This document shows, piece after piece, positions 6 to 42,679 of a stretch of 64,000 bases of DNA. The stretch lies in the NCBI GenBank assembly GCA_905198835.1, contig CAJKDY010000001.1, positions 150,263 through 214,262 of the forward strand, read 5' to 3'. The stretch comes from an uncultured Eubacteriales bacterium (GTDB lineage Bacteria; Bacillota; Clostridia; Oscillospirales; Oscillospiraceae). Below the pieces are notes generated by a model. That model ran no database searches, was not told where the DNA came from, and saw only the letters and a list, made by a program, of their open reading frames with translations. Position numbers and translations under genes: made by a program. Every line of letters begins with the position of its first letter. Position 1 is the first letter of the stretch.

Positions 6-3000
6 GTGACCTCTTTGAACGGCGGCGTCCCGGTCAGCGTCAGCGTACCCTTCAGCGCCCTGAGCAACCTGACCCGGAATGCCGACGGCACCGTGGCTAC
101 CGTGGACGTCAACGACACGGTGGGCGGCGTGAACCTGAGCCTCACCGACGCTACCGACGGGCCCATCACCGTGACGTTCAACAACGCCATTCGGACCCGC
201 TACGAGCTGCGCGACGTCATCGCCCAGCCCGGCGTGACCCGTATGACCATCAAGGTCACATCCGAAGACCGCACCGTCAGCCGGGAGTACACCGTCACCA
301 TCATCCGCAAGACCGATCCCGACGCGGCCAAGCTCCGGGACATCCAGATGTTCCAGGGCGTGGAGACCATCCCCGACGGCGAGACTGTGGAGACCCAGGG
401 CCTGACTTTGATGAAGTACCTGACGCCCGGTGACTACTACGACTTCTCGCCCGTGTTCGATCCGGACAACATCCGCTACTTCTTCGCGGTGCCCGAGCTG
501 ATGACCGGGGACATCTACCTGAATCCCGTCACCTTCTCCGACGCCTCCTATGACATCGTCGCGAGTACCTACCGCAACGGACAGGTCCAGATCCCCAACC
601 GCAACGTGACCGATAACGTCATCATCGTGCCCGCGCTGAATCCGGGCGAGACCTTCCGGGTCGAGCTGAACATCACCCGCAAGGGTAACGGCGCCAGCGT
701 CGGTGGCTCTACCAACTATACGCTGTACTTCTACAAGAACGACGCCACCGAGCAGCTGATCACCGCCACCAACGACCTCCGCGAGCGGGTGGATTACAGT
801 CCCTTCAGCGACCTGAAGCTGGACAGTGTGCCGCTGACCCGGAACGCCTCTAGCACCGCCAACGCCAGCGACCACAACTTCTATTACAACACCACCAACG
901 CCACGGTGGACCTGACCCTGAATCTCTTCGCGCTGGCGGCCAACAACGGCGGCTATAAGGTCTACTGGGCCGATATGAGCACCTACGATCCCATGACCGG
1001 CGAGCCGGTGTGGAACGAGATCACCGACCTCCAGGGCGTTACCACGCTGGGTATGGCCGACAAGAACAGCAAGTGGTTCGTGCTCAAGGCCACCGACCAG
1101 GTCAACAAGTTCTACTCCTCCATCGCGGTCTACCGCGATCCGGGCGGACTCCACGATACCAAGTTGGAGAACCTGGCCGTGTCCAAGCCCACCGTGCCGC
1201 TGTTCCGCGACGACCGCTATGAGTACTTCGCGGCCGTGGATGTGGAGACCGGCACCGCCAAGATCATCGCCCAGGCCAAGACCGGCGGCAGCTACCTCAC
1301 CGAGCTGCGGGTGCGTAGCGTGGGCGGCGAGTACCTGGCCGGCGACATCCTCAGCAACGGCGCCCGGGTAGAGACCGGCGACATCAAGCTCCACCAGGGC
1401 AGCAACCGGGTCACTGTCACCGTCAAGCACGTGGTAACTGACGCCGCTGCCGTAGCTACCACAACCACCGGCGGCCAGGTCACAAAGCCCTCTGTGGAGG
1501 AGCGGACCTACAAGCGGGCCTACGAGATCGAGCTCTACCTGGCAGGCGAGACCGCCTACGTGGTGGACAAGGATGCCGAGGGCAACTATCAGCAGACCTA
1601 CACCACCGACCGCAACGGCTTCAAGCAGGAGACCTATGTGCCCGTCCACGGCGCTGGCACAGAGGCTGACAACCGCATGGACCGCGAGGAGCGGCTGGAC
1701 ACCGCCGACATCATCTGGATGGATTACACCTCCGGCGGCTACCTGACGCCCATCTGGAACAGCGATCTGGTGGACTACTTCCTGAGCTACCCGTACTTCT
1801 CCAACGAGTATGAGTATGAGTACGAGTACGATGAGCACGGCGCCCTCAAGCTCGACGCCGCCGGCAAGCCGGTACCCAAGTACAACGAGTACGGTCTGCC
1901 CGTGCCCAAGCGCTATACCTCCGGCCCGAAGAAGGGCGAGGTGGTGTACCTTGTCAACGATCATCTGAACCTGAAGGCGACCCTCCGGCCCGAAGAGGTG
2001 GACCGCGCCACGGTCAAGGTGGACCTGGTCACGGTGGATCCCGTCACCGGCGACAAGACCTACTACGCTACCGAGACCCTCAACCGCGATCCGGGCACCG
2101 GCGAGTTTATCTACGCCATTCCGAACCTCCATGAGGGCGAGAGCCAGATCACCTTCACCGTTCAGGTCAAGGGCAAGGACTATGTCACCGGCACTACCAA
2201 CTTCACCGACGCGCTGATCACTGAAAAGCACTATATGATCACCGTCTACCGGGCCCTCACCGACCAGTACGAGCAGCCCAATGTGGCCGACAACACCGCC
2301 ATTCGCGTCAATGGCACGGGCAACTTCGCCGGTCAGGTCTTTGGCACCATTCCCGACTTTGACCCGGAGATCAACTTCTACTACCTGAACCTGCCCAACG
2401 AGGCTCGGGATGTGGAGCTGTGCGCTCAGCCCGGCGTGTTTGAGAAGGTCCTCGGTACCACCAAGACCCGGACCACCTACACCCTCATCGTCAACGGTAA
2501 GACCGTAGCCGCCAGCGACTTCTCCGCGGGTATCCTCAACAAGCTGCCCATCCACGACCTGATGGTGGGCGACAACACCGTGGAGATCGACATCACCGTG
2601 CCCGGCCAGGCCACCAAGTACTACACCTTCATTCTCAACGTGGGCGACGCCGAGCAAAAGAAGCTGGACGCCACCGTGGACGCCAACTGGCCGCTGCCCT
2701 CCATGACCAATATCCGCATCAACACCACCCTGGGCGGCGCGCTGGGCACCGACGAGACCCTGATCCCCGGCTTCCACAGCAACATCCACTACTACAACGT
2801 GGTGGTGCCCTACAACGTCGATCAGGTCTATGCCTACGGCGCGGCCACCGAGGCCGGCGAGCTCCGCATTGCCAGCATCAACGTGGACGACGTCCGTTGG
2901 GACGCCACCGCTGCCGACAAGCTGACCGCCGAGCTGGAGGGCTGGCGGAACCTGCCCATCCCGCTGAAGGTGGGCAACGAGAACAACATCGAGTTCGTGG

Positions 3001-6000
3001 CCTACGGCCGGGATGCTGAGGGCAATGTGACCAACACCATGGTCCGCTACATCGTCAACGTGGTCCGTCTGCCCGAGGGCTATGTGGCGCCCGAGCTGGA
3101 GTTCCTGGGCATTAGCGAAGGCACCATGACGCCCACCTTCCATGGCCGCACCAACAATTACTATGCCACCGTGCCCTACGACATGGAGAGCGTCAACGTG
3201 GAGTCCTTCGGCACTACCTACGGCGCCATGGGCATTGTCACCAAGCCCGCCGACACCCCTGCCAGCATCGTCAAGATGGTGGGCGGCGACTCCGTCAGCG
3301 TGGGCCAGGCCCTCTATGTGGCCGACTCGCTGAAGCTCAACGTGGGCGACAACCTCATCCGCGTCTACCTCTACGACGTGCGCGATGTGCCCGACGGCGG
3401 CTACCCGTACTACATCGGCGTGTACTCCCTGACCATCCACCGCGAGGCCAAGGACGGCGTCGTGATGGAGCTGGGCGAGGGCGAACGCCAGAAGACAGAC
3501 GTCAACGGTGACCCGCTCTATGAAGCCGACGGTGTTACCCCTGTGACCGAGACGGTTCCCGCCATCTCCGTCCAGCGGGTGGACAAAAACGGCATCAGCG
3601 TGGCCGGCGCCCACAAGCTGAACCTGAGCTACGAGTTCAACGAGTATACCAATTACCTCTATGTGGAGCGCGAGGACACGGCGGTGATCTTCCACGCCAA
3701 CGCCATTCACGACCGGAACCTTGTCACCGTCAACGGCGTGGCCATGCCTGCCGACGACAGCGGCGTCCGGGTCACCATCCCGGCCGACAACACCAGCGTG
3801 GTGGTCATTGCCGTCACCGATCCTGTCACCGGCACCATGAAGCGCTACACCGTCACCGTGGTCCGGGGCCGCACCGAGGCGCAGGCCGCCACCACGCCCG
3901 AGCTGGGCTACAACTTCCCGGGCATCATCCGTAACATCCAGGTCTCCGGTCTGGACGCCAGCAAGGCGCCTGCTACCGTCGCGGCCAGCACCCTGGCAGT
4001 CAGCGGCGAGGTGAAGATCAGTCCCTACGAGGGCACCATCACGCTGGCCAACGGCCATACCTACACCGGTAAGCTGGTGGACATCACCGTGGAAGCTCTG
4101 TACGATATGGGCCGGCTGACCACCCGGGCCACCGCCGCCACGCGGGTGCGCATCAATGGCCACACCGCCAAGATGTCCCCGGGCAGCAGCGACCAGACCC
4201 GCCGGTACACCGTGACCCTGCCCATGAACACCTACACCGACCGCTTCGACATCCGGGTGGACTTCCCGCGGGTCACTGGCACCGGCGCCACTGCCCAGGT
4301 GGAGCGCATCGACAACATCTCCTATGTGTTGATGATCACCGACGAGGCCAACGCCCCGCATGAGGTGGACACCACCGTGGAAGAGAGCATCTATGGCGAC
4401 ATCGTTAAGCCGCTGCGCTGGACCCAGGAAGACTACGAAGCGTGGGTAGCCGACGAGACCGCCAAGGGCACTACGGCCCTGAGCCTCAGCGACTGGACCA
4501 TCGCTACGGGCCATACCATCGGCGAATTCAAGTACACCGATAAGGTCATCACCGGCCCGCAGCTGGCGGAGATCCAGCTGGACGAGAACGACGGCACCGT
4601 CCACTCCGGCACCTTCACCACCAAGTTCCACGGCGATGTGTTCAGCTACCGGGCCACTGCCCAGGGCGACACCTTCTCCGTCTACGCCACGGTGGAGAGC
4701 GATAACGGTCGCGCCATGTACGCCGACACCCACTACCGCCGCGCCGTGCGCAGCTATGTGGACCACTACGGCCAGCAGGTCAACATCGGCGATTACATCG
4801 ACGCCGCGGGCAACCGGATCCTCGGCCAGTATCAGGGCCACTACGACACCTCTGTCATTCCCAACGTCTTCCAGACCAGCTATACCGACGCCAACAGCCA
4901 TGTGGTCCAGGTGGCCACCAGCACCGACGGCAAGGGCAACCTGGTCATCGGCGCGGGCGATTGGGTGGACGCCAACGGCAACTTCGTGGCTGGCACCGAG
5001 GCCGCGGCTCTGGCCGCCCTCACCCCCGCCCAGCTGGAGGCCATCACCGCCGACCGCACCACCTACATCGAGGTCTACGATGAGCAGGACAACCGCTTCA
5101 CCGTCTCCAAGTCCGGCGACTACGTCCACTTCAAGTTCCCGACCGACGACGCGGGCAAGCGGAAGGTGATGAACCTGACCTTCCGGGTCATCCAGTACGC
5201 CGACTCCGGCTACGAGCTCGTCAGCGAGTACAAGCTGCGGGTCTATCCCACCAGTGAGCCCATCATCGACGACCTGCGGCTGTATCAGTCCCGCATGAAC
5301 GGGCCCAAGCCCTTCGACCCGCTGGAGCGGGAGTACTACGGCGAGGTGTATAAGCGCCAGGACGGCTACGGCGTCTACGCTCACGCGGAGTACTTCGACC
5401 TGGGCGACACCGCCTGGCGTGACGGTAAGCTGACCATGGTGGCCCGCTATCCCGAGCTGGCGCCTTACGACACCGGCGTGCTCGATCCCAAGACGGGTAT
5501 GCCGCTCATCCTCCAGCCCGGCCAGAAGTACCTGGTGGAGGACGCGCCGCTGACCGTGGAGGGCAGGACCTATCAGCCCGGCGACGAGGTGGAGTACAAG
5601 GAGATGTGGTACCTCAATGACGGCACCGCCTGGGTGGCCAACGACAAGGCCCGGAAGGACGACTACCGTTACTACGAGTACCAGATGACCGGCCACACTG
5701 CCATCGCCGACGTCAACGGCAAGAATCCCGGCGACGCCGACTATATCCCGACCTATCAGCCTGACACCAGCGTCACCTGGGGCCATGAGGACTTCTCCGG
5801 CTACTTCCCGCAGGAGACCCTGCCCGACATCAGCGGCAACAACACCCAGTGGACCGACCTCTACGCCGCCAACCCGGGCTACGCCTACGCCGACAAGCCT
5901 TACCTGCCCTGGGATCTGTCCAAGTTCGACGTGATCGTCAGCCTGACTTATCCGTACAAGCAGAACACGGCCAACACCAGCTATGTGGACAGCAAGGGCC

Positions 6001-9000
6001 AGAGCGTGGCGCCTGGCGACTATGTGGCTAAGGAGACCGTGACCATCGGCGGCGTCACCTACCAGGCTGGTGACCTGATCCTGGCGGCCTCCACGACCTC
6101 CGCGGCGACGTTGGAGAGCTGGAAGCAGAGCGGCGACGAGCGCTACGACGCGGTGACCATCTTCCGGGTGGGCAGCTACACCGTCCACATGACCCGGATC
6201 AACGTGCCCATCCTGCCCATCACCCTGGACGACATGGAGGCCTTCCAGCTGGAGAACCTCCACCGCGATCTGGTCCAGATCGGCGCCATCATGACCGGCC
6301 CGGACTACAACGACGTGTTGCTCGACGAGAACAACGAGCTGCTGCCGCCCGCGGTGAAGGACAAGACCACCGACCCCGTGACCTATTGCGCGCCCAACTT
6401 CGATCCGGAGCATCCCTACTACCTGCTGACGCTGGATCACCGTATGAACGTCATGTGGCTGGAGATGGACTTCCCGACCACCGGGCCGGACGCGAAGACC
6501 GTTACCATCACTTCCGCCGACGTCCGCAGCCAGTTCCCCGAGTCTTACTATTACCCGCAGCTCAACGAGACGGTAACTCCGGGCCAGAAGGTCGGCATCA
6601 AGTTCGGCGATCAGTACTACGCCGACGAGAACTTCAAGACCCTGCTCCAGGTCACCGTCAAGGGCGACAACCCGGTGGGCAACATCGCCAGATACATGAT
6701 CTGGGTGGTCCGGGGCGAGCGCAGCGACAGCGAAAGCGAGCTGGACGTGAACGTGTACTACGGTCTCAACCAGACCGAGGCCCACGACGCGGCCACCAAG
6801 GGTGACGTGACCTACGAGGCCATTCTGACCCAGGCCACGGAGCGCTACACCAATGATCCCACCCACGCCGCCGAGCTTGGCGCGGGCACCGCGGCTGACC
6901 TCACCGAGGAAGAGCTGTGGGGCACCCTCTACTGGTTCGACGCCGACCAGGACGGCACCGCTGAGATCCACGTCTGGCCCGGCGTGCTGGAGAGCGCACA
7001 GGCCCTCTATGTGGACACCACCGACAGCAACACCATCAAGGTGGCCAAGACCGAGGAGGCCGTCCCCGACGATCCCACCAACCCGGGCAGTAAGATGCCC
7101 ATCCTGGCAAAGGTGAACGGCTTCAGCACCACGCGCTACCTCTACACCGCCACCCTGCCCATGTCCGCCAAGAACCTGACTTTGGACCTGAAGGAGTTTG
7201 GCGCCAGCGGCATGGACCACGTCAGCGTGGTGTATAACAACCAGTACTACCACGCCGACACTGCCAACGCCATCGGCTCCATCGCCGACGACGAGCCCAG
7301 ACCCGACTTCCAGCTGGATACCCTGGTGGACGTGGCCCTGAAGCGGGGCGAGCAGCTGAGCTACATCTTTGTCACTGTCCATCCCGATCTGGCCACCGCG
7401 CCTGACGGCATCACCAAGGATGACAAGTACTACATCGACAACGCCACCACCTATGTCATCCGGGTGACTCGCTTGAACAACCAGGCCTTCGAGAACATCT
7501 GGGTCACAGACACCGAGTACACCCACCGCAAGGACGTGGTCTCTGACGACAACCGGCCCGAGTACTTCGAGCAGATGTGGCTCATGGAGGACTCCGGTGC
7601 GCCCAAGACCGAGTACCAGCTGGCGCAGAAGCTGCTGGATCCCAGCACCAACCTGGGCGAGACCTACACCGACACTCAGGGCAATGTCAAGCTGAAGTAC
7701 GACGTCAACGACGACGGCGTGGTGGACACCGCGGACATCGCCTACCTGGTGGATCTGACCTGGCTGCCCGACGAGGATGGCACCGTGGTCAACAAGTGGG
7801 GCAATACCTACACTGCCACCAAGCATGAGCAGCTGCACAACATCTACGACCGGGACGTGAACCGTATGCACGCTGACTACGGCGTCTATGTGGACACCCT
7901 GGACACCTATATCCTGCTCAACGCTTTGGCTCCCGGCAACACCGCCGACGGCCCCGGCGCCAACCCCGATTACTACATTATCATCGAGGAATACGGCGTC
8001 AGCGAGCCGCAGATGGTGGACTCCCGCACCTTCGGACAGGGCCCGGGCAAGATCATCGATGCCCAGTTCCGTCTGGACGCCAGCAAGGAAGAGCAGATCT
8101 TCCAGTTCACCATCGTCAACACCACCGACGGTACCGAGGGCGTCTACTTCCTCCACGTCTACCGCTACATCCCCGACGACGCGGTATACAAGGTCCAGAC
8201 CCACATCGTGGGCAACCTGGAGACCGCCGCCAAGCGCGTGCCCGACACCGCCAAGCACCGGGATTACTCCTTCACCTGGACGGTGTACCGCAAGACCGAC
8301 CTGCTGCGGTACTACCAGGGCCTGGACGCCGACCTGACCACGGATCCCTCCGGCTTCACCCTGGAGGCGGAGACCACGCTCAACCCGGCCATCCCGCACC
8401 CGTACACCACCAAGGCCGTTGGTTGGTACACGGTGGATCAGGCGGTGGAGAAGTACCTGCCCAGCCTGATGACCCTGTCCTACACCGAGCGGTTCGCCGC
8501 GTTGCTGGATCCCGCCAACCTGGCGGCCTTCGGCGGCACCGCGCCGCTGATCGAGGTGGCCACGGGCACCCAGATCGACGACCAGAAGGGCGATTACCAT
8601 ATCGACCTGACCGACCAGGCCCCCGGCGCCTACATGATCGTCTTCCAGCGCAAGGGCAGTTTGGACCTGCTGTACGACAACGTGCTGGTCTACAACACCT
8701 ACGCGCCTGCCAAGTACGACTTCGGCACCGACTTCCTGGTGGCCGGCGATCTGAACCACGATGGCGAGATCGACAAGCTGGACCTGGGTATGTTCGACCA
8801 GTACAAGGCCGCTGTGGACGGTGTATACCGTGACCTGCTGGCTCGCACGGTGGTCACCAAGCTGAGTGTCACCACCAACTCCGGCTGGACTGGCTCCTTC
8901 GTGACCGGCGATACGCTCACCGGCGCTATGGCCAAGGCCGGCATCACCGTGGCGTATGAGGGCATCGATGTCACCTCGCCCGCCGCCACCGTGGGTCCGG

Positions 9001-10031: not shown

Positions 10032-10060
10032 TCCAAGGCCCGAGTTTCGCACAGACCCTT

Positions 10061-10097
10061 AGCACCCACCGTTTACACGGTGGGTGCTTTCTTTTTG
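10061..10097 (+). terminator. Rho-independent terminator after giant gene 1.
   Basis: Hairpin agcacccaccg-tttaca-cggtgggtgct is followed by ttctttttg. Confidence 0.75.
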
Positions 10098-10180
10098 TCG
10101 CCGGGGCAGGGGAGGGGGCAGGTTTCATTGTCCCTTCAAGACCTTAGCCAGAAAAACTTCGTGGAAATTCGCCCTTTTAG

Positions 10181-10209
10181 TTGACAATAATCGGTAAATG
10201 AAGTATGAT
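10181..10209 (+). promoter_or_regulatory. Sigma-A type promoter upstream of giant gene 2 (probable promoter of the gene 2-3-4 operon).
   Basis: TTGACA (10181-10186), a 17-nt spacer and TATGAT (10204-10209) sit in a locally AT-rich intergenic stretch, with a ~115 nt 5'UTR before the ATG at 10325. Confidence 0.65.
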
Positions 10210-10324
10210 ATACCTGTATGAGTATCACTATGCCCAAATGGACCCAAAAGCAGGTAAATCTAACCATATATTCCAATATCTGGAATATGTTGAGACGAAA
10301 ACTCCCGATGGGAGGGGTTGCTTT

Positions 10325-16459: not shown

Positions 16460-16551
16460 CGAACCCCCGCTCTTACCCCAGTTCCCGGCTCCAATGCCCT
16501 GACCCCGCATAGCGGGGCCGGGGCCTTGGGACACCAAGGAGGCAGAGGCTT

Positions 16552-27072: not shown

Positions 27073-27139
27073 GACCTCGGCATCCATCGACAAAACGACC
27101 TGTACGTTCCCCGTCGGGACAAAAAAGGAAGTGTCTGCC

Positions 27140-36100: not shown

Positions 36101-39100
36101 GACTACGCCAAACTGACCTGGACGCCCACAGGCGAGCCCTCTGAGAGCATCTGGGCCGACGCCAAACCGGTCGGCAATCCCGGCGCGTCCAACCGTCCCT
36201 GGGATGACGTATCCAGTATGATCGTCAAAGAGGGCAGCACCGTCACCTTGGATGTGACCTTGGACAGTAACCCCGTCAGTGGGGAGTCGGACGTGATCCT
36301 GGCCGCCTTTGTGGTGTGGAAGGACCGGGGCACCATCGTTACGCTGACGCCCAGCTATCCCGCCGGCCGGACCGTGCTGACCGGGCTGGAGGGCGTGACG
36401 GAAAGCGCTTCGGGCGCGCCGGACTTTGATAACGCTCTGGCCGACGCCACCGCCTCGTTCAAGATGCCCATGGGCGATGTGGAGGTCTATGTGGTGACCA
36501 CTACCGAGCCGCCCACCGACCCTTGGCACACCGTGGCCCTGGTGGCTACCGACCACAGCCCCACCGGCAACAACTCCGGCAACAACGAGGGCGACCTCTG
36601 GAACCACAAGGACACCACGGATAAACGCGTGGCCAAGTCTGACAATGTGCCCACCATCGCCTGGGTCACTGTCACCGAGACCGAGACCATTTCCGTCCTG
36701 CCCCGAGCCGCCGCGGGCTACCGCTTCAACGACCCGGCGGTGATGACCGGCAACGACGGCGTCACCCAGAATCTCACCACCCCCAACGGCAATTTCCTCT
36801 ACGACGTCTCCTCCATCCTCTGCAACCAGGTCATCCACATCGACTTTGAAAGCGGAGACGATCTGGAGCTCACCGTGGAGATCGAAGACCCGGATAACCC
36901 AGGCGACGGCACTGTGGAGCAGGTGGTCACCGCCGACCCGGCCGGCGCCGCGCCGCCCACCCTCCGCTTGACCTCCACCTCTGTGGCCGGGTCCTATCAG
37001 ATCATGAAGGGGGTCACCGCCGGCGGTGCTGTCCAGCTGACGGCCAAGCCCTACAAGGATGCCCAGCGGCAGTATTCCGCCTACGCCACCCTCTACTATA
37101 TCGACGGCACCAGCGACAACGTCCCCTTGACCGACGCGGATGGTGACGGCGTGTGGGAGGGCTCCTTCCCCATGCCCGCCAACAACGCCCGGGTGGTGGT
37201 CACCTTCTACGACGGCTACACCGGCACTCTCACCCTGGTCAATCGCATTACCGGCGACGCCACCGGCCAGGCCGCTATGACCGAGGACAAGCGGGGGCTG
37301 ATGCCGCTCGCCGTCCACTCCATGCGCACCACCGACTCCTTCCAGAGCCTGCCCAATGGCACCGGCCTGGACGCCTACATCACAAGCTCCATGACCGGCC
37401 GCACGGTAAAGGGGCTTTTGAAGCGCAACGGCGTCACCACCATCCTGCCCGGTACCAACACCGGCATCGTGGGCGACCCCACCCACTTCTACCACACCAT
37501 CGACCGCGCCGACGCGGAGATCATCCTGATCCTGGATAGCCCCACCGAGCACCCCGACAGCTATCTGGCTGCCGTGAACTGGGTGGGTCTGCCCGCGGGC
37601 ACCGACCATCCTGAGATCGAGGACAAGACCACCGCCGGACAGCTCCGGGGCGGGGACAACGCCTGGACCACCGCCGTCAAGGACGACACCGTGGAGGTCA
37701 CTTTGAACGTGCCCTTTGGCTACAAGGCCACCGTCCGTGCCGACGGCGCCGACGTGACCCTCAGCGCCACCGGGCCCTTTGACGGTCCTGCCAACCCCGG
37801 CGCGCCCACCACGCAGACCGTCACCTTCTCCATGCCCGCCCGGGATACGCAGATCACCGTGACCTACACCAAGACCATCTTCGACCTGACGCTCCGGGTC
37901 ATCGACACCAGCAACTCCGGCGCGAACGCCACCGCCGTCACCCCCGCCTCCGGTATCGTCTCCGGCGGGCCCAGCCTGACCGCCAATGGCCAGAGCATGA
38001 CGGTAAGAGCCGGCGGCAATGTGGACGTCTCCGCCACGCCGGCCACCGGCGCTGTGGCTCCGGCCAAGGATCCCCACGTGGTGGCCGTCTACTACCACAC
38101 CGCGTCTGGCGCCACCACCTGGCTGGAGCCCAGCGCTCTGGCTCCGGGCGCGGCGTCGGCGAAGGCCTTTACCATGCCTGAGGACGATGTGACCGTCACC
38201 GTCATCTACGACAATGACCACACCGACAAGCCTGAGGACAAATACTATATCGCCTCTGTAGAGGTGGTGGACCCGGACCACGACCCGGGCAACCGGGCCG
38301 TCAGCATCGTCAACCTCCCCGCCGCCGGCCTGCCCACGGGCAGTCCCAGCTGGGCCGCGGGCTACGGGGGCAGCGAGATGAAGGTCTCCTATGAGGCGGC
38401 AAACGGTTATTACGTCACTGTCACCGCCCGCCGGGCGGACAACGGGGCGGACATTCCCGTGCTGCAGATGGGCTCTACCGCCAACGGCACCGGCTCTGTG
38501 ACCATGCCCTGGGCCAACATCATCATTACTCTGACCTACTCCAAGGATAAGCCCGACCAGCAAAACGACGTGGCCCTCCAGCTCCTGGGCCATGAGGCCC
38601 TGGCCGCCAACGAGGCCGCCACCAGCAACTTTACCGATTCCACCCAGCTTGTGGGCCTTGCCACCAACGGCACGACCGCCAACCACGCTCCCCATGTGCC
38701 CGCCTACACCCAAAACACCGACCCCGTGGAGACGGTGCGCTCCGCCGCCAAGCTGGGCGACGATCTGCGGACTCTGGCCGGCAGTGCCGCGGGCAGCCAG
38801 GTGGTGCGTATGACGGTGGCAGTGCGCAAGGTGACAAGGGACGGCGTCACCGGCGAGGTCACAGCGGTCTCTGAGACGCCGGAGGTAGATCTGCTGGTGA
38901 GCAAGTATAACGGCTCTGCCACCTCCCGGGCCCCCGCGCCCATTACCCACAGCCCCGATGAGGAGATCGTCATCCGGGTCTACTACGGCAATATCTACAC
39001 CGCCACCTTCCACCTGGTGGGCGAGGATCCCACCGATACCCATACCGCCACCGATACCGTGGCCTACACCCATGCCTACGATTCCTCCGATGCCGCGCTG

Positions 39101-42100
39101 ACCAAGCCCATCCAGAACGACCTGGACCGCTTTGAGGGCTATCAGGGCGACGGCGCTGAGGACATCCAGACCACCGCCACCGCCGGGCCTGGCCGCAGAG
39201 TGGTAGACGTGGTGTGGGAGAGCGATCTCACCGGCGCGGCCTCCGCCACCCCGATAACGGGCACGGACCGCTATGACTTTACCATGCCCGCTGACGATGT
39301 GGACTTCTACGCCTTCTTTGAAACCGAGCCCACCGACCCCGACGAGCGCTCTTACATTGCTAAGGTGGCCTTTGACCCCGCCAGCCAGCACCGAGACAAC
39401 AGTCAAAACGCCGTCACCATTGCCAACACCACCGACACCGCCGCACCCAAGGGCAAATATTGGGTGCGGGCCAAGGACGGCGACGGCATCGAGGTCACAG
39501 TCAAGGTGGCCCAGGGCTACCAGGCCCAGATCGTCACCACCAAGATCGACGATGCCACCAAGCTGGGCGATCTGCCGGATATCAACGATGCCGGCACCCT
39601 CCGCAAGCCGCTGGCTACCGACGACTATCAGTATTACATCTCCCGCACCCAGTTTGTCTATAACCTGCCCGCGGGCAAGGAGGCCACCTTCACCATGCCC
39701 AAGGACACCGACGCCACGGTGACGGTGAAGTTCACCAAGGGCTACGACCTGTCCCTACGGGTCTCCGACGCCAGCTTGCTGGACGCCGTGGGCTTTACCA
39801 CCGAGGAGAACACGGTGGATCTGACCCACGACGCCACGGACCACCTGAAATGGAAGAACGACGTCACCACCGCTGATGCCGCCATCGCCACCGACGGCGC
39901 CTATGACCCCGATCCCTCCACCCTCCAGGACCGGCCCGGCGGCAAGCGGGTCACCACCGATGTGGGCGTCTACGACCCGGACATGAAGGTCCGCGTCACC
40001 CGTACCACGCCCTTCACCGGCACAGCCACCTTGCTCAACATCCCGCCGGACACCAACTATCCCTTTGCTATGCCCTATGAGGACACCCTGGTCAGCGTCC
40101 TGCTGCAAGACAAGGACGCCACGGACGATCTGCTGGCCAAGGTGGAGCTGAGAGGGGATAGCGACGTCACCGGCAACACAGCCACCCCGGTGGTGGACCA
40201 CGACGATCCCGCCCCGGCCACTACCACCGGCACGGTCTGGACCACCACCTCTGAGGGGAACGTCATCGACCTGACCCTCACCGTGGCCCAGGGCTATGTG
40301 GCCAAGATCAAGGTCCGCCGGGACGACAGCATCGACCCCAATGACCCCACCGACGAGAGCAAGTGGGTCTACCTGGACGCCCAGGACTACGTCTTCCAGC
40401 GGGTGTGGACCGAGGCGGACACCTCCACCGGCGCGCTGCCGGGGGCCACGGTGGAAAAGTCGGAGAATATGGTCATCGCCCACGGCGTCACCGAGGTCCA
40501 GGTGGGCTACGACCCCGCCGCCCTGCCCCAGCAGCTGTTCCCCGACTCCATTGGCGGTCAGCAGCACTTCCGCTTCGTCATGCCCAAGGACCAGACCACT
40601 CCCACCGCCGACAGCAAGACCGACGTGACCATCCTGGTGGAGTTCGTCCGGGTCAGCACCATGCCCAAGCCCTTTGACCCCCGCAATGTCAACGCAACCG
40701 TCCGGGGCGTGACCTATGACCACCAGCCCAGTTTCCTGGAGGAGGGCTTCATCTACGGGGAAAACCGGGGCGATTACGCCGTGGTGGAGATCCCCACCCT
40801 GGCCATGGACGAGGATGGCGTAGGCAAGCACCTCTATGACACCGATAACTATGACGAGCCCGCCTCCGGCGATCCCAAGGACAAAAAGCCCGTCATGGAC
40901 ATCAAGCGTTTTACCTTCGCCCTGCGCACCGTCTCTTCCGGCGGCGCGGTGAGCTACCAGCGTCTGGATCTGGACACCGATGTGATCCTGGTGCCCTGGA
41001 GGGAAGACGAGCTACTAGATCCGGCCGATCCCTACAACTACTATGTGGGCGAGGACCAGGGCATGTGGTCCAGCGACGACTCCCGCTACTGGCAGACCAA
41101 CGCTGCGGATAAGGGCACGGATCACGACTTTGTGGGCTCCAAGTTCAAGCTCTATCCCGCCGAGCCCAACCCCAAGACCGGCCTGCGTACCGCCGGGGCC
41201 CAGGCCCTCTACGATATGCTCAATAACAATGGCTCCTTGGAGACCTACACCGCTCCCGACCCCGCCGACGCAACCAAGACCGTTACCAAGTACCGCACCC
41301 AACTGATGGTCCGGGCCGAGGACGCCGCCAACCAAAGCGAATATACCGAGGTCTGGATCCGCCCGTGGTTTGCCCTGGGCGTGAAGGTCAACTCCTACGG
41401 CCCCACCCATCCCGTGGAGGGCAAGCTCTACCGGCTGATGACCGAGCATGAGTTGAACGTGGCCAACGGCTACTGGGATGAGGACGAGAATGTCCTGCCT
41501 ACCACCACCCTCACCGCCCCGGAGACGCCGGACGCGGACAACTTCCAGCACTATAAGTGGGACGACGACGCCGAGCCCACCTTGGAGGACTCGGTGGTGC
41601 TGGAGGGCGAGGGCCAGGGCAAGTGGCTGCAGATCCTGCGCATGCGCTCTTCCGAGCTGCTGGGCGGCTTCACCAGCGCCTATGATCCCAGAGAGCAGGT
41701 CTCCGACCCGGCCAAGGCTGACGACCGCACGCTGCTGGATAACGTCAGCGCCGGGCAGGACCTGATGTACGCCCTGGAGATCGGCAAGACCTCCAACCTG
41801 ACCTACACCCGTATCAAGCTGGACCTGGATCCCCACAGCGCCGCCTACGCCGCGCCCAATGCGCCGCTGACGGACTACTACGAGGAGATAAACGGCAAGA
41901 GCGACTACACCACCCGTACCTTCATGCTTCAGGATACCGTTCAGCTCATCGCCGGCGACGTGGACCAAAACGGCGCTACCAAGGTCCAGGACTATGACGC
42001 GGTCTACGACTTTGTCTACCGCTCCAAGAAGTGGACCGACGTGAAGACCGAGCCCGTGGAGCCTGCCACCGGACCTGACGCGGCCTACGCCGCGGCCATG

Positions 42101-42679
42101 GAGCAGTGGGCCATCTCGGTCTACAATCCCGAAAGCGCCGCCTACCGCTGCGACCTGGACGGCGATCGCCGGCTCACGGTGGTGGACCTGAACATCGTCA
42201 ATACCCGCTTCAACTATAACCGCACCGAGGAGGACTACCACTGGTACTACCAGGACAGCTCCAAGGTCTGGCAGCACATTCTGCCCTTCGGCATGGGGCC
42301 CCGGGACGAGACCAACTACGACGCCCTGTTTGCCCTGCGGAGCATCGGCGAGGGAGAGATCTTCACCGATCCCTACTGGGACGAGACCGTGGATCCCGCC
42401 CAGCTGAGCGCGGCGCCTATGGAGACCTTCTTCATCGGAGCGGACGGCGTCTTCCGCCTGGACACCGAGATCCCCGAGACCCCCAGCCTGCCCGCTCCCG
42501 ACGATGAGACCGCCAACCCCCACAACGAGCGGGTGGAGACCCCCATGGGCGAGGAGGCGTTTGGTCACGGCCAGGCCGCCTTCTTCCCTGAGGACGCGAC
42601 CCCGGCTTTGCCCGAGGAGCCCCAGGAGCCGGCGGCGGGCGACGACCCGCCCGCCTGGGAGGAACCCGGCCAGGACTGA
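27140..42679 (+). CDS. Giant secreted protein 4 (5179 aa). It has a signal peptide and an N-terminal cohesin-like module. At least 18 copies of a ~110-290 aa beta-rich repeat end in F-x-M-P-x-x-D-V-x-V. A C-terminal dockerin-like loop pair and a Pro/Glu-rich acidic tail follow.
   Basis: RBS AGGAAG lies 8 nt before the ATG at 27140 (the ORF track begins at an in-frame GTG at 27131). The signal peptide is MKQKWNRLLASLLCALMLCSDLSGLMPRAAAA. The cohesin-like signature is TVFWVGIGVDRTQLLELVKDGKGLSSLEAGFYYDNTIIEPY. Repeat ends include YAFTMPDQDCVVRVAY, GFTMPSGDVTVYVKF, AFTMPEDDVTVTVIY and TFTMPKDTDATVTVKF. C-terminal loops are GDVDQNGATKVQDYDAVYDF and CDLDGDRRLTVVDLNIV. Confidence 0.9.
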   Translation: MKQKWNRLLASLLCALMLCSDLSGLMPRAAAAPAASTPTTVTNTGVQDEFRDEANGRPNLFVSFLGDNNNYVYSATNAALTRLNDASLNTISVPAPYDQSGYDNPTGPGNDSSGAWFQYKNYPDCAPANLNKTVFWVGIGVDRTQLLELVKDGKGLSSLEAGFYYDNTIIEPYIDPTKLPVGVTMATATDEQKQEAYRQTIAQANIANGKYPANTQWSSDYTILRALSGVEPPETDPVTREELEQATMDDIMNNTLYTSAGQSQWKMTYVSLELSDIASETANRRLAGAYQGVDKLPQGVDDEGNPVPIVPDSAQGDQYIVDGDPTSGYDYNYLLLIPFRLKNYGSTDWTPLRLVRDATHFSIGGSTWGVDDYGAWERTTTRNGAVTGSAGDANTLSVESHPDRDLKLLTRFAGDLNLFSPGRTAEYEYDALLRIIGDGGSLNHAKLTVKGDPAVWPVWADTNGDIIGGLQSGQGMHLDVHTQDNYVATVTVTYYQDDGAGGEELVYHQYTQTLSGAHDNSYEFVMPAFTRVGTRRVTVTVAFTYQAGDNALVYLTEIPQPGDADHAVGNETTIRTSLTAAYAPTGNTETINSYSPTSAHPNYSHPGLTHPNTPVANAKKDQYVEIQVETHADYAAVVQIYDFKAQCFVTGGLNINATGVSGVTPDQTEIDNPAHLADPTDPSIPAKIKSGRITLPQGGTIGLRMGSQDLDVIITYEKGQRRQATLEVYNTNADAVNFNLNTAQLVYDRYDALNQPSKAYSSVTYHDYDKDALGTVTTDDHRAIKGTNKLPWISASQASLSGSLGGDTGRTGKSWEPTALPTAQQEVLGGMTVMALLASATQKSDFQATINGMDLACAVVDDGSASGLTGLRKNAQGELYGDPDVSAALDADIDKPTIVDALWELRQAIDADTSTGGLKDTYLKTVTKAADGSVAYTYYDLTPAQVQAYLLEIFEAAQIKAENDLAYRIAYRRYLTILNDYNAVKDIPAYSGMAALAAPAVNLSTTVANGKREYQYSDYKSVYLAQYDQYLDDYEQYLADLDANAGTGGAGAPTAPTTYPGATAPGKKTISLKTPSAAVSAVGAHTWTAAAVPTEVPAGQNGNTIETRSGRTVYIVLEADSAYELDTANTDIFQRGPAPGYATGTRIASANPVAVPGYQNVYAFTMPDQDCVVRVAYKLRGTRKLNITYKNAAGLDDNEAIVEVYSVATPPAVTPKLNTITNKGYTTGTLPSGGSYDAYTDTYVTDPVEDAFKGSTVTIRAKAADGYEVKSVEAKNSDNTVITVTKRPADDPADGDVYTFVIAQGRDDDINLVITYGPEVDEVFTATIDSTTEGSIDGGNKATWYVKNGSVVSTPRVLSDVRPSTHLVGHVTVAPGYYIKSVTAWGASGNYPYTITGNGYNNGFGTALTGTNIPIEIYVDMPHEDLVVDVVFAKGPPDPAPDNALTLIVKDDDNTEADPAKAAANWASARVFDQRPTGLATAIPEQTLPSAGALPGDQLGKNAGHGNGTLTDRKYVETGKWVLVDFSAAVVLKPDTSEGAPAGAMVVDTEKSYYVSSVTVGPDHLGVALVWEGPTSVSFYMPAGSTAVTVEFSKYPANGRLPDYVLTVRETYTDLNAGAPTPPNTDQYSYITSARSATIGRWSTLPEGGVNVPGRALDWNTNPELVPPKDEKNGTGAATAGEEVTMTFDVDEGDGTAANPGWYYQSVVLISNGAATRLSDNVTEKSRTTKVIAGKTTTVVTYQVKFYMPASGAEFVVNYRKGPKPTIPDYAFTLILDDPHNVLNTATNMWDENSVQASFQDPTGAAGSHDPLEVGHNKTAMAAVQHIHAGDIITLKTTIAAGYYLEYMIVNPAGLKIYPVWSDANTASFTMPTEGVAVVARVVKGTPQEYTANLILRYEDENGNQILPAGKTIHDIGRGTFVIPNPANPGSTLGSLDDYARKAVYSTVQLPGTDIPYDLYAFDGYYIDRITVEPVVLGVTGSLSGSCGYQDGDVTMPHASINVNVWFKAGWPDEIPYDLTIRVHDSSLDPGRTPSMTQNNYAALRTVAGRAPAPVVASGDKDAVYGGQTKRIDGSDYILDRDTVILDIHTMPGFHVDADTIKLTDTRGDPVAWWYVPGGIAYTQPPRSVIADITFKQGDPADKYTATLHLSGYTAGDTSSERDILNDYVLLSAQTGNTHAMTTSQAAGTTAPPAAVNTDTAVITDLYHGDALDLAIRPGAGRHISSVYAINRTTGDVIPIYGYDTTGTLTATAVQYVPGRAGTPTDNSTTPPTPAIPGTLTKGAFAMPQSDVDVYVNYATGTISATDMVVKLIVSGLTGSGSATADITEPAPSAGQSMTVAAAGVDTRFTAQGNEAVVTFDPAAGYGIAKLEVTNNATGASVPYQWISMLQDPAIVDNTDGSGNPQDNTDLWSGVAPAPGITHPTYKPNPKKQIQLTVPSGGVTIHVTYAKESTQPFRAQVVVNDPLSGDPNSRNNAWLSQKAGADTDDPVQKKLQTALPGEWVDLDITVHPGYRIEYVKVVPQSFGIVPGLPIGTDMGSGVTYYLHDQSTGFTMPSGDVTVYVKFVADGVGTKNVTLAVKGAPTGNNANHATITSPPSGTKGPVYVQGSPQSVSARPKVDWVTVDYEWDVATSAVASITVQTTSDSANVPFTQVLDPATGKGKLTFPMIDDDVIVTITYKDDPTPVGQQVVLHVIDKDRNAAQAILLDNDNYGRLQYAGNAAIGAVAADTGKVGLTQALEDAGTFAVTETILVPAGQSVDVTACSNPTDPNGPVYIESAYVLFEQNGQMIHFNLTPDSLLGGTGPGYSGLHDPVTDPQSFVVHPGRNDVYVTLTRKAPRADEHAAVLMIRSPSTDTQSEAGIHADQTVAAWNDADPARRDKVRANDPDDSHAYVTATDGEKITISVEPASGYVIDYVQITPLGFPLDTDPVYHFDRTGNTITFDMPHVNVAVTVYLKRGSDTNFKATLHYIQDPVCVAHGKPPQEEDYAKLTWTPTGEPSESIWADAKPVGNPGASNRPWDDVSSMIVKEGSTVTLDVTLDSNPVSGESDVILAAFVVWKDRGTIVTLTPSYPAGRTVLTGLEGVTESASGAPDFDNALADATASFKMPMGDVEVYVVTTTEPPTDPWHTVALVATDHSPTGNNSGNNEGDLWNHKDTTDKRVAKSDNVPTIAWVTVTETETISVLPRAAAGYRFNDPAVMTGNDGVTQNLTTPNGNFLYDVSSILCNQVIHIDFESGDDLELTVEIEDPDNPGDGTVEQVVTADPAGAAPPTLRLTSTSVAGSYQIMKGVTAGGAVQLTAKPYKDAQRQYSAYATLYYIDGTSDNVPLTDADGDGVWEGSFPMPANNARVVVTFYDGYTGTLTLVNRITGDATGQAAMTEDKRGLMPLAVHSMRTTDSFQSLPNGTGLDAYITSSMTGRTVKGLLKRNGVTTILPGTNTGIVGDPTHFYHTIDRADAEIILILDSPTEHPDSYLAAVNWVGLPAGTDHPEIEDKTTAGQLRGGDNAWTTAVKDDTVEVTLNVPFGYKATVRADGADVTLSATGPFDGPANPGAPTTQTVTFSMPARDTQITVTYTKTIFDLTLRVIDTSNSGANATAVTPASGIVSGGPSLTANGQSMTVRAGGNVDVSATPATGAVAPAKDPHVVAVYYHTASGATTWLEPSALAPGAASAKAFTMPEDDVTVTVIYDNDHTDKPEDKYYIASVEVVDPDHDPGNRAVSIVNLPAAGLPTGSPSWAAGYGGSEMKVSYEAANGYYVTVTARRADNGADIPVLQMGSTANGTGSVTMPWANIIITLTYSKDKPDQQNDVALQLLGHEALAANEAATSNFTDSTQLVGLATNGTTANHAPHVPAYTQNTDPVETVRSAAKLGDDLRTLAGSAAGSQVVRMTVAVRKVTRDGVTGEVTAVSETPEVDLLVSKYNGSATSRAPAPITHSPDEEIVIRVYYGNIYTATFHLVGEDPTDTHTATDTVAYTHAYDSSDAALTKPIQNDLDRFEGYQGDGAEDIQTTATAGPGRRVVDVVWESDLTGAASATPITGTDRYDFTMPADDVDFYAFFETEPTDPDERSYIAKVAFDPASQHRDNSQNAVTIANTTDTAAPKGKYWVRAKDGDGIEVTVKVAQGYQAQIVTTKIDDATKLGDLPDINDAGTLRKPLATDDYQYYISRTQFVYNLPAGKEATFTMPKDTDATVTVKFTKGYDLSLRVSDASLLDAVGFTTEENTVDLTHDATDHLKWKNDVTTADAAIATDGAYDPDPSTLQDRPGGKRVTTDVGVYDPDMKVRVTRTTPFTGTATLLNIPPDTNYPFAMPYEDTLVSVLLQDKDATDDLLAKVELRGDSDVTGNTATPVVDHDDPAPATTTGTVWTTTSEGNVIDLTLTVAQGYVAKIKVRRDDSIDPNDPTDESKWVYLDAQDYVFQRVWTEADTSTGALPGATVEKSENMVIAHGVTEVQVGYDPAALPQQLFPDSIGGQQHFRFVMPKDQTTPTADSKTDVTILVEFVRVSTMPKPFDPRNVNATVRGVTYDHQPSFLEEGFIYGENRGDYAVVEIPTLAMDEDGVGKHLYDTDNYDEPASGDPKDKKPVMDIKRFTFALRTVSSGGAVSYQRLDLDTDVILVPWREDELLDPADPYNYYVGEDQGMWSSDDSRYWQTNAADKGTDHDFVGSKFKLYPAEPNPKTGLRTAGAQALYDMLNNNGSLETYTAPDPADATKTVTKYRTQLMVRAEDAANQSEYTEVWIRPWFALGVKVNSYGPTHPVEGKLYRLMTEHELNVANGYWDEDENVLPTTTLTAPETPDADNFQHYKWDDDAEPTLEDSVVLEGEGQGKWLQILRMRSSELLGGFTSAYDPREQVSDPAKADDRTLLDNVSAGQDLMYALEIGKTSNLTYTRIKLDLDPHSAAYAAPNAPLTDYYEEINGKSDYTTRTFMLQDTVQLIAGDVDQNGATKVQDYDAVYDFVYRSKKWTDVKTEPVEPATGPDAAYAAAMEQWAISVYNPESAAYRCDLDGDRRLTVVDLNIVNTRFNYNRTEEDYHWYYQDSSKVWQHILPFGMGPRDETNYDALFALRSIGEGEIFTDPYWDETVDPAQLSAAPMETFFIGADGVFRLDTEIPETPSLPAPDDETANPHNERVETPMGEEAFGHGQAAFFPEDATPALPEEPQEPAAGDDPPAWEEPGQD
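27290..27960 (+). other. Cohesin-like module of giant protein 4 (approximate bounds).
   Basis: VFWVGIGV...LEAGFYYDNTIIEPY shares its signature with protein 3 and resembles the cohesin core strands. Confidence 0.45.
30480..40660 (+). repeat. Array of at least 18 protein-level repeats inside giant gene 4. Each ends with the motif [FY]-x-M-P-x-x-[DN]-[VT]-x-[VI]-x-[VI], and many begin with (P)DYxxTLxL.
   Basis: Repeat ends were read at about 30.63, 31.87, 32.38, 32.74, 33.12, 33.99, 34.80, 35.14, 35.97, 36.46, 37.17, 37.83, 38.17, 38.50, 39.28, 39.69, 40.06 and 40.58 kb. One further copy is in giant gene 2 (~14.38 kb). Confidence 0.7.
41953..42210 (+). other. Dockerin-like region of giant protein 4: two Ca-binding loops about 55 aa apart.
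   Basis: GDVDQNGATKVQDYDAVYDF and CDLDGDRRLTVVDLNIVNTRF both fit the D1/D3/[DN]5/D12 plus hydrophobic-helix pattern. Confidence 0.5.

Follow-up and report, generated by a model that had tools for sequence, protein, structure and literature searches.

We analysed a 64,000-nt stretch of DNA, hereafter the window, from an uncultured Eubacteriales bacterium of the Oscillospiraceae (assembly GCA_905198835.1, contig CAJKDY010000001.1, positions 150,263 to 214,262), in which some 42 kb are taken up by four consecutive genes for giant proteins, here called P1 to P4. With about even confidence, we read this cassette, from an uncultured lineage of human-gut Oscillospiraceae, as encoding a giant fibre or adhesin of the cell surface that lacks enzymes and is held together non-covalently. 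A cellulosome-type grammar is supported: P2 has a cohesin and a dockerin, P3 has S-layer homology (SLH) repeats, all four proteins have dockerin-type modules, and no enzyme was found in the window part of the cassette. A first-pass annotation, made by a model from the sequence and its open reading frames (ORFs), had proposed such a grammar without enzymes. Most of that module set held up, and for P1 "enzyme-free" covers 3341 C-terminal residues out of the 42,508 in this organism's protein.

The four ORFs follow one another on the plus strand, to which all coordinates refer unless marked otherwise, and their positions agree with that annotation. P1 (6-10031) is the C-terminal 3341 residues of a giant protein, in a frame that runs open to the window edge and is truncated there. 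P2 (10325-16459) has 2044 residues, P3 (16552-27072) has 3506, and P4 (27140-42679) has 5179 from its ATG or 5182 from a GTG at 27131. The mechanical P2 ORF (10205-16459) starts 40 codons upstream of MKKKYG at nt 10325, the start in all homologues, and those codons overlap a predicted promoter. The lengths of 2044 (first given as 2045), 3506 and 5179 residues are also called on independent contigs of the same organism.

P2 is an apparent adaptor made of a signal peptide, a cohesin, about 1500 residues of unique beta-rich sequence, and a beta-sandwich followed by a dockerin. Its N-terminal module (10406-11359, residues 28-345) is a cohesin fold with structural support from prediction. An AlphaFold2 model built from 20 sequences (predicted local distance difference test (pLDDT) 84.5, predicted template modelling score (pTM) 0.86) forms a nine-stranded jelly-roll beta-sandwich, and the top ranks of a Foldseek search with this model were 18 type II cohesins. 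When the P2 family profile was compared with the PDB, only 1tyj and 2y3n were returned, both type II cohesins, by way of the strand motif GAxFxLxYNPxYL (E 0.013 with the whole protein and E 0.0025 with the N-terminal module, over 39 positions). In both sequence and fold the module is closest to the type II cohesins 1tyj, 2y3n, 3l8q and 5k39. Large insertions make it about twice the size of a normal cohesin, which explains the modest template modelling scores and the failure of the Pfam Cohesin model (PF00963; no match at E<=0.1 in P2 or in 25 family members). Among 29 full-length P2 homologues, 0/29 had a precomputed Pfam domain.

At the opposite end of P2, a beta-sandwich precedes what we read as a divergent dockerin with an insert of ~30 residues (15962-16456, residues ~1880-2044). 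The F-hand, a loop of the form D-x-[DN]-x-[DN]-G followed by a helix, occurs twice (residue 1943, GDVNTDG; residue 2007, CDVNNDRNINNIDANQL). The two copies lie 63-64 residues apart and are invariant across 20-25 homologues, and the insert between them is itself conserved (DPLGYEAG...YPxANIFKFRV). We favour a dockerin because some profile matches fall on stretches that Pfam itself calls significantly as Dockerin_1. In a search of 1.84 billion proteins, a profile built from the last 114 residues of P2 matched residues 441-515 of P0105 (E 9e-6), where Pfam places Dockerin_1 at residues 450-513 (E 6e-10, model positions 1-54 of 57), and weaker matches likewise coincide with Pfam-significant Dockerin_1 in P0100 (E 3e-9) and P0102. 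The same search gave 101 cluster representatives at 50% identity, mostly proteins of 1250-2070 residues, and nearly all of them are matched at their very C-terminal end. On P2 itself, Dockerin_1 (PF00404) scored 19.7 bits against a cut-off of 22.9 and aligned at model positions 36-54 alone, and the P2 C-terminus is not a compact dockerin of ~60-70 residues scoring above the gathering threshold. Both calcium loops align in order with those of the dockerin 4dh2_B (E 2.7, not significant), and four strands of the preceding beta-sandwich are confident in an AlphaFold2 model of this end of P2. The cohesin and the dockerin are both kept in every P2 orthologue (18 loci), and the 1500-residue middle diverges. 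Hidden Markov models (HMMs) of the two modules found no further copies in P1, P4 or the flanking ORFs of the 18 related loci, giving at most one cohesin per protein. As a side observation, P2-like proteins have a second size class of 1250-1350 residues (among P0093-P0126) with the same C-terminal dockerin type, and some of these carry Flg_new_2 (InlB B-repeat) domains.

Dockerin-type calcium-loop modules were found in all four proteins, at the C-termini of P1, P2 and P4 and inside P3, and they have a subtype in common: a beta-sandwich, then 'GDV[DN].DG', then '[FY]R.CD.[ND].D[RG]'. One or two F-hand motifs were observed per protein where shuffled sequences gave an expectation of <=0.01, with a pattern that was defined after inspection of the sequences. 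The C-terminal loops first described on P1, P2 and P4 are thus beyond chance, with Dockerin_1 below threshold, and the original list was incomplete, as it lacked the module inside P3. This internal module (18409-18771, residues ~620-740) consists of a beta-sandwich and a dockerin-like part and matches the P2 C-terminal profile, at E 4e-8 in hmmsearch and at E 4.4e-4 in hhalign (80 columns). Its first F-hand, PIPGDVDMDGAVTVADAL, is invariant and, as PIPGDVDMDGAVTxADA, forms the longest run of invariant residues in an alignment of seven orthologues; the second is degenerate here and intact (YRVCDVNGDG) in the most distant orthologue. Dockerin_1 was recorded as weak on two P3 orthologues.

The P4 module (41918-42250, residues ~4930-5040) has F-hands at residues 4943 (GDVDQNGATKVQD) and 5008 (YRCDLDGDRRLTVVDLNIV), 65 residues apart and laid out as in P2, with the signature 'R.CD.[ND].DR' common to both proteins. 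It has no Pfam match and an E of 0.2 against the P2 profile. In L011, the most distant relative, whose P2 is 26% identical, the P4-like gene again has a weak Dockerin_1 record. At the end of P1, a dockerin-like module (9789-9995, residues ~3262-3330) has a degenerate first F-hand (NGISLDSAEGQALLMEMI), an intact second one (LDLDGSKILTDADAAFI) and a conserved GSCRLDNMY tail. Residues L3294, D3295, G3298, L3302 and D3306 are invariant in an alignment of seven orthologues; Pfam has no match there, and the support consists of motif and conservation. P1 has, in addition, a single dockerin-type F-hand, GDLNHDGEIDKLDLGMFDQYK, directly after a beta-sandwich (8745-8813, residues 2914-2936), identified by regular expression and shuffle test. 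Eight of its residues (G2914, D2915, N2917, D2919, G2920, I2922, D2923 and D2926) are invariant in seven orthologues, and it gives a sub-threshold Dockerin_1 match at model positions 1-21. We consider the C-terminal modules of P1 and P4 to be putatively dockerin-type, supported at the level of motif and conservation only. Pfam misses both module types in this lineage, so that counts of cohesins and dockerins for gut Oscillospiraceae are probably too low.

The wall anchor is found on P3 only, as the first-pass annotation had it. Three SLH repeats (26497-27033, residues 3316-3494) were identified by Pfam (PF00395, E 3.2e-16) and by hhalign self-comparison, and residues 3366-3489 match the SLH domain of Sap (3pyw/6bt4, E 2e-7). 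They follow a Big_2/intimin-like immunoglobulin-like domain (26179-26388, residues 3210-3279; Pfam E 2e-8) with PDB matches to intimin and BglH. SLH repeats in Firmicutes bind pyruvylated secondary cell-wall polymer. Further features agree with the initial description of acidic, Thr-, Asp-, Gly- and Tyr-rich secreted proteins: net charges range from -128 to -315, and P2, P3 and P4 begin with signal-peptide-like segments, the N-terminus of P1 lying outside the window. In P1-P4 there is no C-terminal LPXTG, also as described, and no hydrophobic segment or membrane helix beyond the signal peptides, so that a sortase-anchored LPXTG adhesin was rejected.

P3 and P4 have a further module in common, which is presumably what had been seen as cohesins in these two proteins. 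It spans residues ~770-1000 of P3 (18859-19551; motifs VFWVGVYL, LALTLTYDSDFVEP and VLAVPFRLLKHP) and residues ~60-345 of P4 (27308-28165; motifs VFWVGIGVD, LEAGFYYDNTIIEPY and YLLLIPFRL). The two copies are homologous (BLAST E 0.017; hhalign E 2.3e-5, probability 76%), and L011 keeps the P4 copy in its distant P4-like gene (31% identity, E 1.5e-21). The motifs VFWVGV, L.L.LTYDS..V.P. and LLV.PF.L. map onto core strands of the P2 cohesin model, and the P3 module matches the P2 cohesin profile at E 0.025, a score reached by 1/100 column shuffles. We put the chance that these modules are cohesin folds at about one half. The earlier claim of cohesins in proteins 2 to 4 therefore stands for P2, by structure prediction, and becomes for P3 and P4 a shared module that is a candidate for the fold. 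If both are cohesins, P2 and P4 share a layout with a cohesin at one end and a dockerin at the other, and P3 becomes a dockerin-cohesin...SLH protein, as an anchoring scaffoldin needs to be.

P1 is by far the longest protein of the cassette. The gene upstream of P2 is called at 42,508 residues on three independent contigs that bear an identical P3, and on at least one contig carrying an identical P3 it lies well inside the contig, so that the window holds the last 8% of the protein. ENA ERZ28617604 scaffold_29 and ERZ920756 k127_141073 are two sources of the full-length P1. Orthologues in relatives have 42,271, 40,653 and 32,360 residues, and in others the giant genes are cut at contig ends, at 12,000-23,000 residues or more. 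At 42,508 residues, P1 ranks among the largest predicted bacterial proteins and is larger than titin. In its tail, Pfam finds Cadherin-like beta-sandwiches in three matched stretches, of which the best is at 1167-1430 (residues 388-475; PF12733, E 2.4e-17). P1-like sequence from two relatives, L012 (7,600 residues) and L018 (6,700 residues), likewise holds Cadherin-like sandwiches alone. RCC1 (PF00415) has no match in the P1 tail or in these 7,600 and 6,700 residues, and we rejected an RCC1-type Oscillospiraceae giant for the parts seen. The only notable DNA-level repeat in 42 kb, found with Tandem Repeats Finder, is a 30-nt tandem repeat of 2.9 copies (9476-9561) that encodes (D)DVAELPVLT in an acidic linker leading into the dockerin-like tail. 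In two relatives the giant gene is broken by an in-frame stop, into 10,175 + 4,257 residues in L012 (1-22774) and likewise in L018 (1-20368). The start of the P1-like ORF in L018 was rejected as a true N-terminus, since the frame opens directly behind a stop codon and lacks a signal peptide.

The cassette is conserved as a whole. The exact P3 sequence recurs on eight contigs (0.2-1 Mb), with a human gut metagenome assembly among the sources, and the gene calls on contigs with the identical P3 are 42,508, 2044, 3506 and 5179 residues, for a total in this organism of 53,237 residues (~160 kb). Relatives with the same gene order are labelled as Oscillospiraceae metagenome-assembled genomes (MAGs). 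The order giant, P2, P3 with its SLH repeats is kept in every related locus examined, down to 26% P2 identity, which argues that the genes work together as a functional unit. A P4 gene is present on contigs of the organism itself, and in L011 P3 is followed by a P4-like gene; in the other loci the DNA ends within P3. A homologue search with the C-terminal 1500 residues of P4 gave no matches, nor did a JGI metagenome scan with its C-terminal 1000 residues. One P2 cluster occurs on >200 independent metagenome contigs. Five of the family's fragments (P0024, P0025, P0030, P0032 and P0033) are labelled 'Muribaculaceae bacterium' (Bacteroidota) at NCBI; they are probably mis-binned contigs of a mouse-gut MAG, since the long-contig homologues are Oscillospiraceae with SLH proteins.

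Apart from these modules the proteins are close to featureless for annotation purposes, with ~95% of the four-protein sequence lacking any Pfam, NCBIfam or PDB match. The Pfam total comes to Cadherin-like (P1), Big_2 and SLH (P3) and sub-threshold, half-length Dockerin_1 matches, with zero for P4, which has no NCBIfam or PDB match either. NCBIfam added nothing to Pfam on P1-P4, Pfam and NCBIfam scans of tiled C-terminal segments gave almost nothing, and PDB sequence searches with the four proteins matched the SLH and Big_2 parts alone. In family-profile searches of the PDB, no cohesin or dockerin was returned for P1, P3, P4 or the P3/P4 candidate module. Of the domain families expected at the outset, SLH and Big_2 were thus confirmed by HMM, Cohesin PF00963 had no match, and Dockerin_1 stayed below threshold over half of its model.

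The description of the proteins as built from Ig-like repeats did not hold up in the strict sense. An all-against-all BLASTP comparison found no internal repeat and no similarity among P1-P4 at E<1e-5, by which a simple tandem-repeat adhesin was also rejected, and the beta-sandwich matches in Pfam are few (Cadherin-like in P1, Big_2 in P3). Profile-profile self-comparison revealed ancient repeats in P3, weak ones in P1 and P4, and none in P2. The P3 repeats are three super-repeats of ~430-480 residues (19999-24231, residues 1150-2560) with the MBG-like motifs RFYGE and NYxL, which align to one another in hhalign self-comparison of the family profile (E 7e-41 and 3e-21); MBG_2 was recorded as faint in P3 orthologues. 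The term is valid only loosely, for a chain of strongly diverged beta-rich domains. P4 ends in an acidic, proline-rich tail, seen in its translation (42377-42676).

Pfam, NCBIfam and PDB sequence searches of the ~14,100 residues of P1-P4 in the window returned neither a glycoside hydrolase nor any other catalytic family, in line with the earlier statement on glycoside hydrolases. The four proteins likewise have no match to any glycoside hydrolase (GH), carbohydrate esterase (CE), polysaccharide lyase (PL) or carbohydrate-binding module (CBM) family, and no catalytic family appears in the extra P1-like stretches of L012 (7,600 residues) and L018 (6,700 residues). A cellulosome consists of dockerin-bearing carbohydrate-active enzymes on a multi-cohesin scaffoldin with a CBM, and the four window proteins do not provide these. 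As no enzymes, no CBM and no cohesin arrays were detected, the cassette does not appear to be a cellulosome in the parts seen.

Taken as an assembly, the cassette would work as follows. Calcium-dependent cohesin-dockerin contacts would join the proteins end to end, as in cellulosome scaffoldins, and P3 would retain the assembly on the wall. P2 would be an extension or adaptor piece, and so probably would P4, whose ends, cohesin-like at the N-terminus and dockerin-like at the C-terminus, apparently repeat the P2 layout. The giant P1 would form the distal part, docked through its C-terminal dockerin. The bulk of each protein would be a chain of very divergent beta-sandwich domains that serves as stalk and binding surface, and the likely purpose would be adhesion to particles, mucus or other cells rather than catalysis.

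Several observations weigh against this assembly. There is a single structurally supported cohesin, on P2, and none on the anchor P3. The similarity of the P3/P4 module to the P2 cohesin is marginal for P3 (the E of 0.025 above) and not significant for P4 alone, and that module lacks a PDB or Pfam match. Dockerin_1 is below its cut-off in all four proteins, and Pfam Cohesin matches none. The F-hands lie 63-65 residues apart, compared with ~30-35 in canonical dockerins. Structure prediction gave a pLDDT <50 for the P2 dockerin region, which makes the model unusable there, and no structural match was obtained. The lone F-hand at P1 residue 2915 could be a purely structural calcium site. About 39,000 residues of P1 fall outside the sequence read, and enzymes or many more cohesins may lie there. 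Finally, docking among the four proteins is inferred from their modules, whose partners may be encoded elsewhere in the genome.

These points bear directly on a rival explanation to which we give a minority chance, namely that the four are independent giant adhesins without mutual docking. Their modules would then be part of a cohesin-dockerin network spanning the genome, like that of Ruminococcus cellulosomes or the R. bromii amylosome, and would bind partners encoded elsewhere, some of them possibly enzymes, or the F-hands would be structural calcium sites of the stalks. The module count is consistent with this, one proven cohesin facing at least five dockerin-like modules; so is the anchor, in that P3 bears a dockerin-like module and its cohesin is a candidate. 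The sub-threshold Dockerin_1 scores throughout, and the single F-hand of P1 set directly at the end of a beta-sandwich, fit as well. A second SLH protein, with a NAGPA domain, is encoded 8 kb downstream, so that SLH display would be general in the organism. Proteins with dockerins and non-carbohydrate functions are also common in rumen bacteria (PMC6487960). What independent adhesins do not readily accommodate is the strict co-conservation of gene order to 26% identity, which speaks for a functional unit, the idiosyncratic dockerin subtype common to all four proteins, and the retention of both ends of P2 in every orthologue across a diverging middle of 1500 residues.

An extended version of the assembly, which we hold only tentatively, is a super-fibre made by serial docking, with SLH-anchored P3 followed by the P2 and P4 adaptors and then by the 42,508-residue P1. 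Such a fibre would comprise >53,000 residues and be potentially of micrometre length. If true, it would be a third route to a long Gram-positive surface structure, besides sortase pili and S-layers.

In one version of the super-fibre P2 would polymerise with itself, head to tail, the C-terminal dockerin of one copy entering the N-terminal cohesin of the next as in a pilus, and the dockerins of P3 (at the wall end), P1 or P4 would start or cap the filament. We judge this improbable. P2 alone combines a structurally supported cohesin with a dockerin at its opposite end, conservation in the family is concentrated at these two ends, which no orthologue lacks, and P2 has a strong promoter of its own. 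The broad P2-like family, with its 101 representatives at 50% identity and a dockerin match almost always at the extreme C-terminus, points the same way. We know of no natural scaffoldin that binds its own cohesin, however, and adaptor scaffoldins with both modules (CipA, ScaB) use different specificities for the two. If the P3 and P4 modules are cohesins, simple serial docking suffices without self-polymerisation.

That the ORFs are non-functional, whether as artefacts of assembly, as pseudogenes or as open frames without coding role in GC-rich DNA, is effectively refuted: long stop-free antisense frames show that composition alone can open frames, and the giant gene is split by a stop in two relatives, but the identical 3506-residue P3 and the gene lengths recur on 8 independent contigs, orthologues keep conserved domains at 26-99% identity, and the signal peptides, SLH, Big_2 and the confidently folded cohesin all lie on the plus strand. 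An artefact of coding from antisense shadow ORFs was rejected on the same grounds of identical contigs, orthologues and plus-strand domains.

Among known systems, the assembly is most readily compared with the anchoring and adaptor scaffoldins of cellulosomes. The reference cases are Clostridium thermocellum, in which the X-Doc II of CipA binds type II cohesins of SdbA, OlpB and Orf2p, Acetivibrio cellulolyticus with ScaA/ScaB, and Pseudobacteroides cellulosolvens. P3 is like them in its C-terminal SLH triplet as wall anchor, and P2 would be like them in having a cohesin together with a dockerin that is preceded by a beta-sandwich in the manner of an X-module-dockerin pair. With its type II-like cohesin, this part of P2 bears a resemblance to the X-module-dockerin pairs of type II systems. 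Unlike cellulosomes, the cassette has no dockerin-bearing enzymes, CBM or tandem cohesin arrays that we could find, and it has one cohesin per protein where cellulosomes have 2 to 11. Its proteins consist of 2,000 to 42,500 residues of unique beta-rich sequence, its dockerin has an insert of ~30 residues between the F-hands and scores below the Pfam cut-off, and its SLH protein bears a dockerin-like module and a cohesin that is a candidate only. Cellulosome anchoring is the subject of a review (PMC12484212).

Non-cellulosomal modules are known from the NagH/NagJ toxin complexes of Clostridium perfringens and from the Archaeoglobus fulgidus cohesin 2xdh. Peer et al. reportedly described such non-cellulosomal cohesins and dockerins in 2009 (FEMS Microbiol Lett 291:1, listed in PMC6487960). 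The cassette is like these systems in using cohesins and dockerins outside plant-fibre degradation. In C. perfringens the modules join glycoside-hydrolase toxins, whereas no enzyme is attached here in the parts seen, and none of the systems named combines giant proteins or an SLH anchor in one conserved cassette.

Giant proteins have been described in related bacteria. Predicted extracellular proteins of >30,000 residues were reported from gut Oscillospiraceae, and Clostridia proteins of 10,000-30,000 residues with dockerin repeats were suggested to act in adhesion (West-Roberts et al, 2023, bioRxiv 10.1101/2023.11.21.568195). That Oscillospiraceae class consists entirely of RCC1 repeats, whereas the parts of P1 seen have no RCC1, are essentially non-repetitive and contain Cadherin-like sandwiches, and the text describes no companion gene for a cohesin adaptor or an SLH anchor. 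In Apilactobacillus kunkeei, the tandem genes for Giant1-5 encode extracellular proteins of 3,000-8,000 residues with elongated predicted structures and take up several percent of a Firmicute genome (PMC12863079). The cassette is like them in being a consecutive tandem array of genes for giant extracellular proteins. Giant1-5 differ in having N-terminal beta-solenoid binding domains and in that none is near 40,000 residues, and the paper makes no mention of cohesin, dockerin or SLH (PMC12863079). Our literature searches found no description of this cassette. The first-pass statement that no such arrangement had been described is nevertheless too strong, given the earlier reports of non-cellulosomal cohesins and dockerins and of Clostridia giants with dockerin repeats; the arrangement is new in form and has precedents.

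The organisation of the locus suggests two transcription units. A strong intrinsic terminator (10061-10098, a 12-bp stem followed by a T run) lies 3' of P1, and a sigma-70-like promoter (10181-10209; TTGACA, 17 nt, TATGAT, 11/12 consensus positions) lies ahead of P2. Since a terminator and a promoter separate P1 from P2, and only short spacers separate P2 from P3 (92 nt) and P3 from P4 (58-67 nt), P2-P4 look like one operon, apart from the giant gene. The GC content of the window is ~0.63, and stop-free antisense ORFs were noted at 10136-16537 (-), 2133 residues, 18790-27345 (-), 2851 residues, and 35570-39406 (-), 1278 residues. Because all domain matches and all homologues are on the plus strand, these are most likely composition shadows of sense-strand codon bias, TTA, CTA and TCA being rare at 63% GC.

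Past 42.7 kb the window holds ordinary chromosomal genes, including a class IV aminotransferase, pyrB, comEC, holA and infC. The second SLH protein lies among them (50421-53663, 1080 residues) with its NAGPA phosphodiester-glycosidase domain, and its domain content indicates that SLH display is more general in the organism. A gene for a regulator with a WYL/WCX domain (53692-54672) also stands among the housekeeping genes.

A human-gut commensal lineage thus spends ~160 kb on four secreted proteins with essentially no annotation. If their modules do join them, cohesin-dockerin chemistry would be a natural general construction kit for giant surface structures, beyond the display of enzymes. The cassette would then offer a concrete model of how proteins too large for conventional anchoring can be held on a Gram-positive wall, and would be a candidate factor in gut adhesion and in the occupation of a gut niche.

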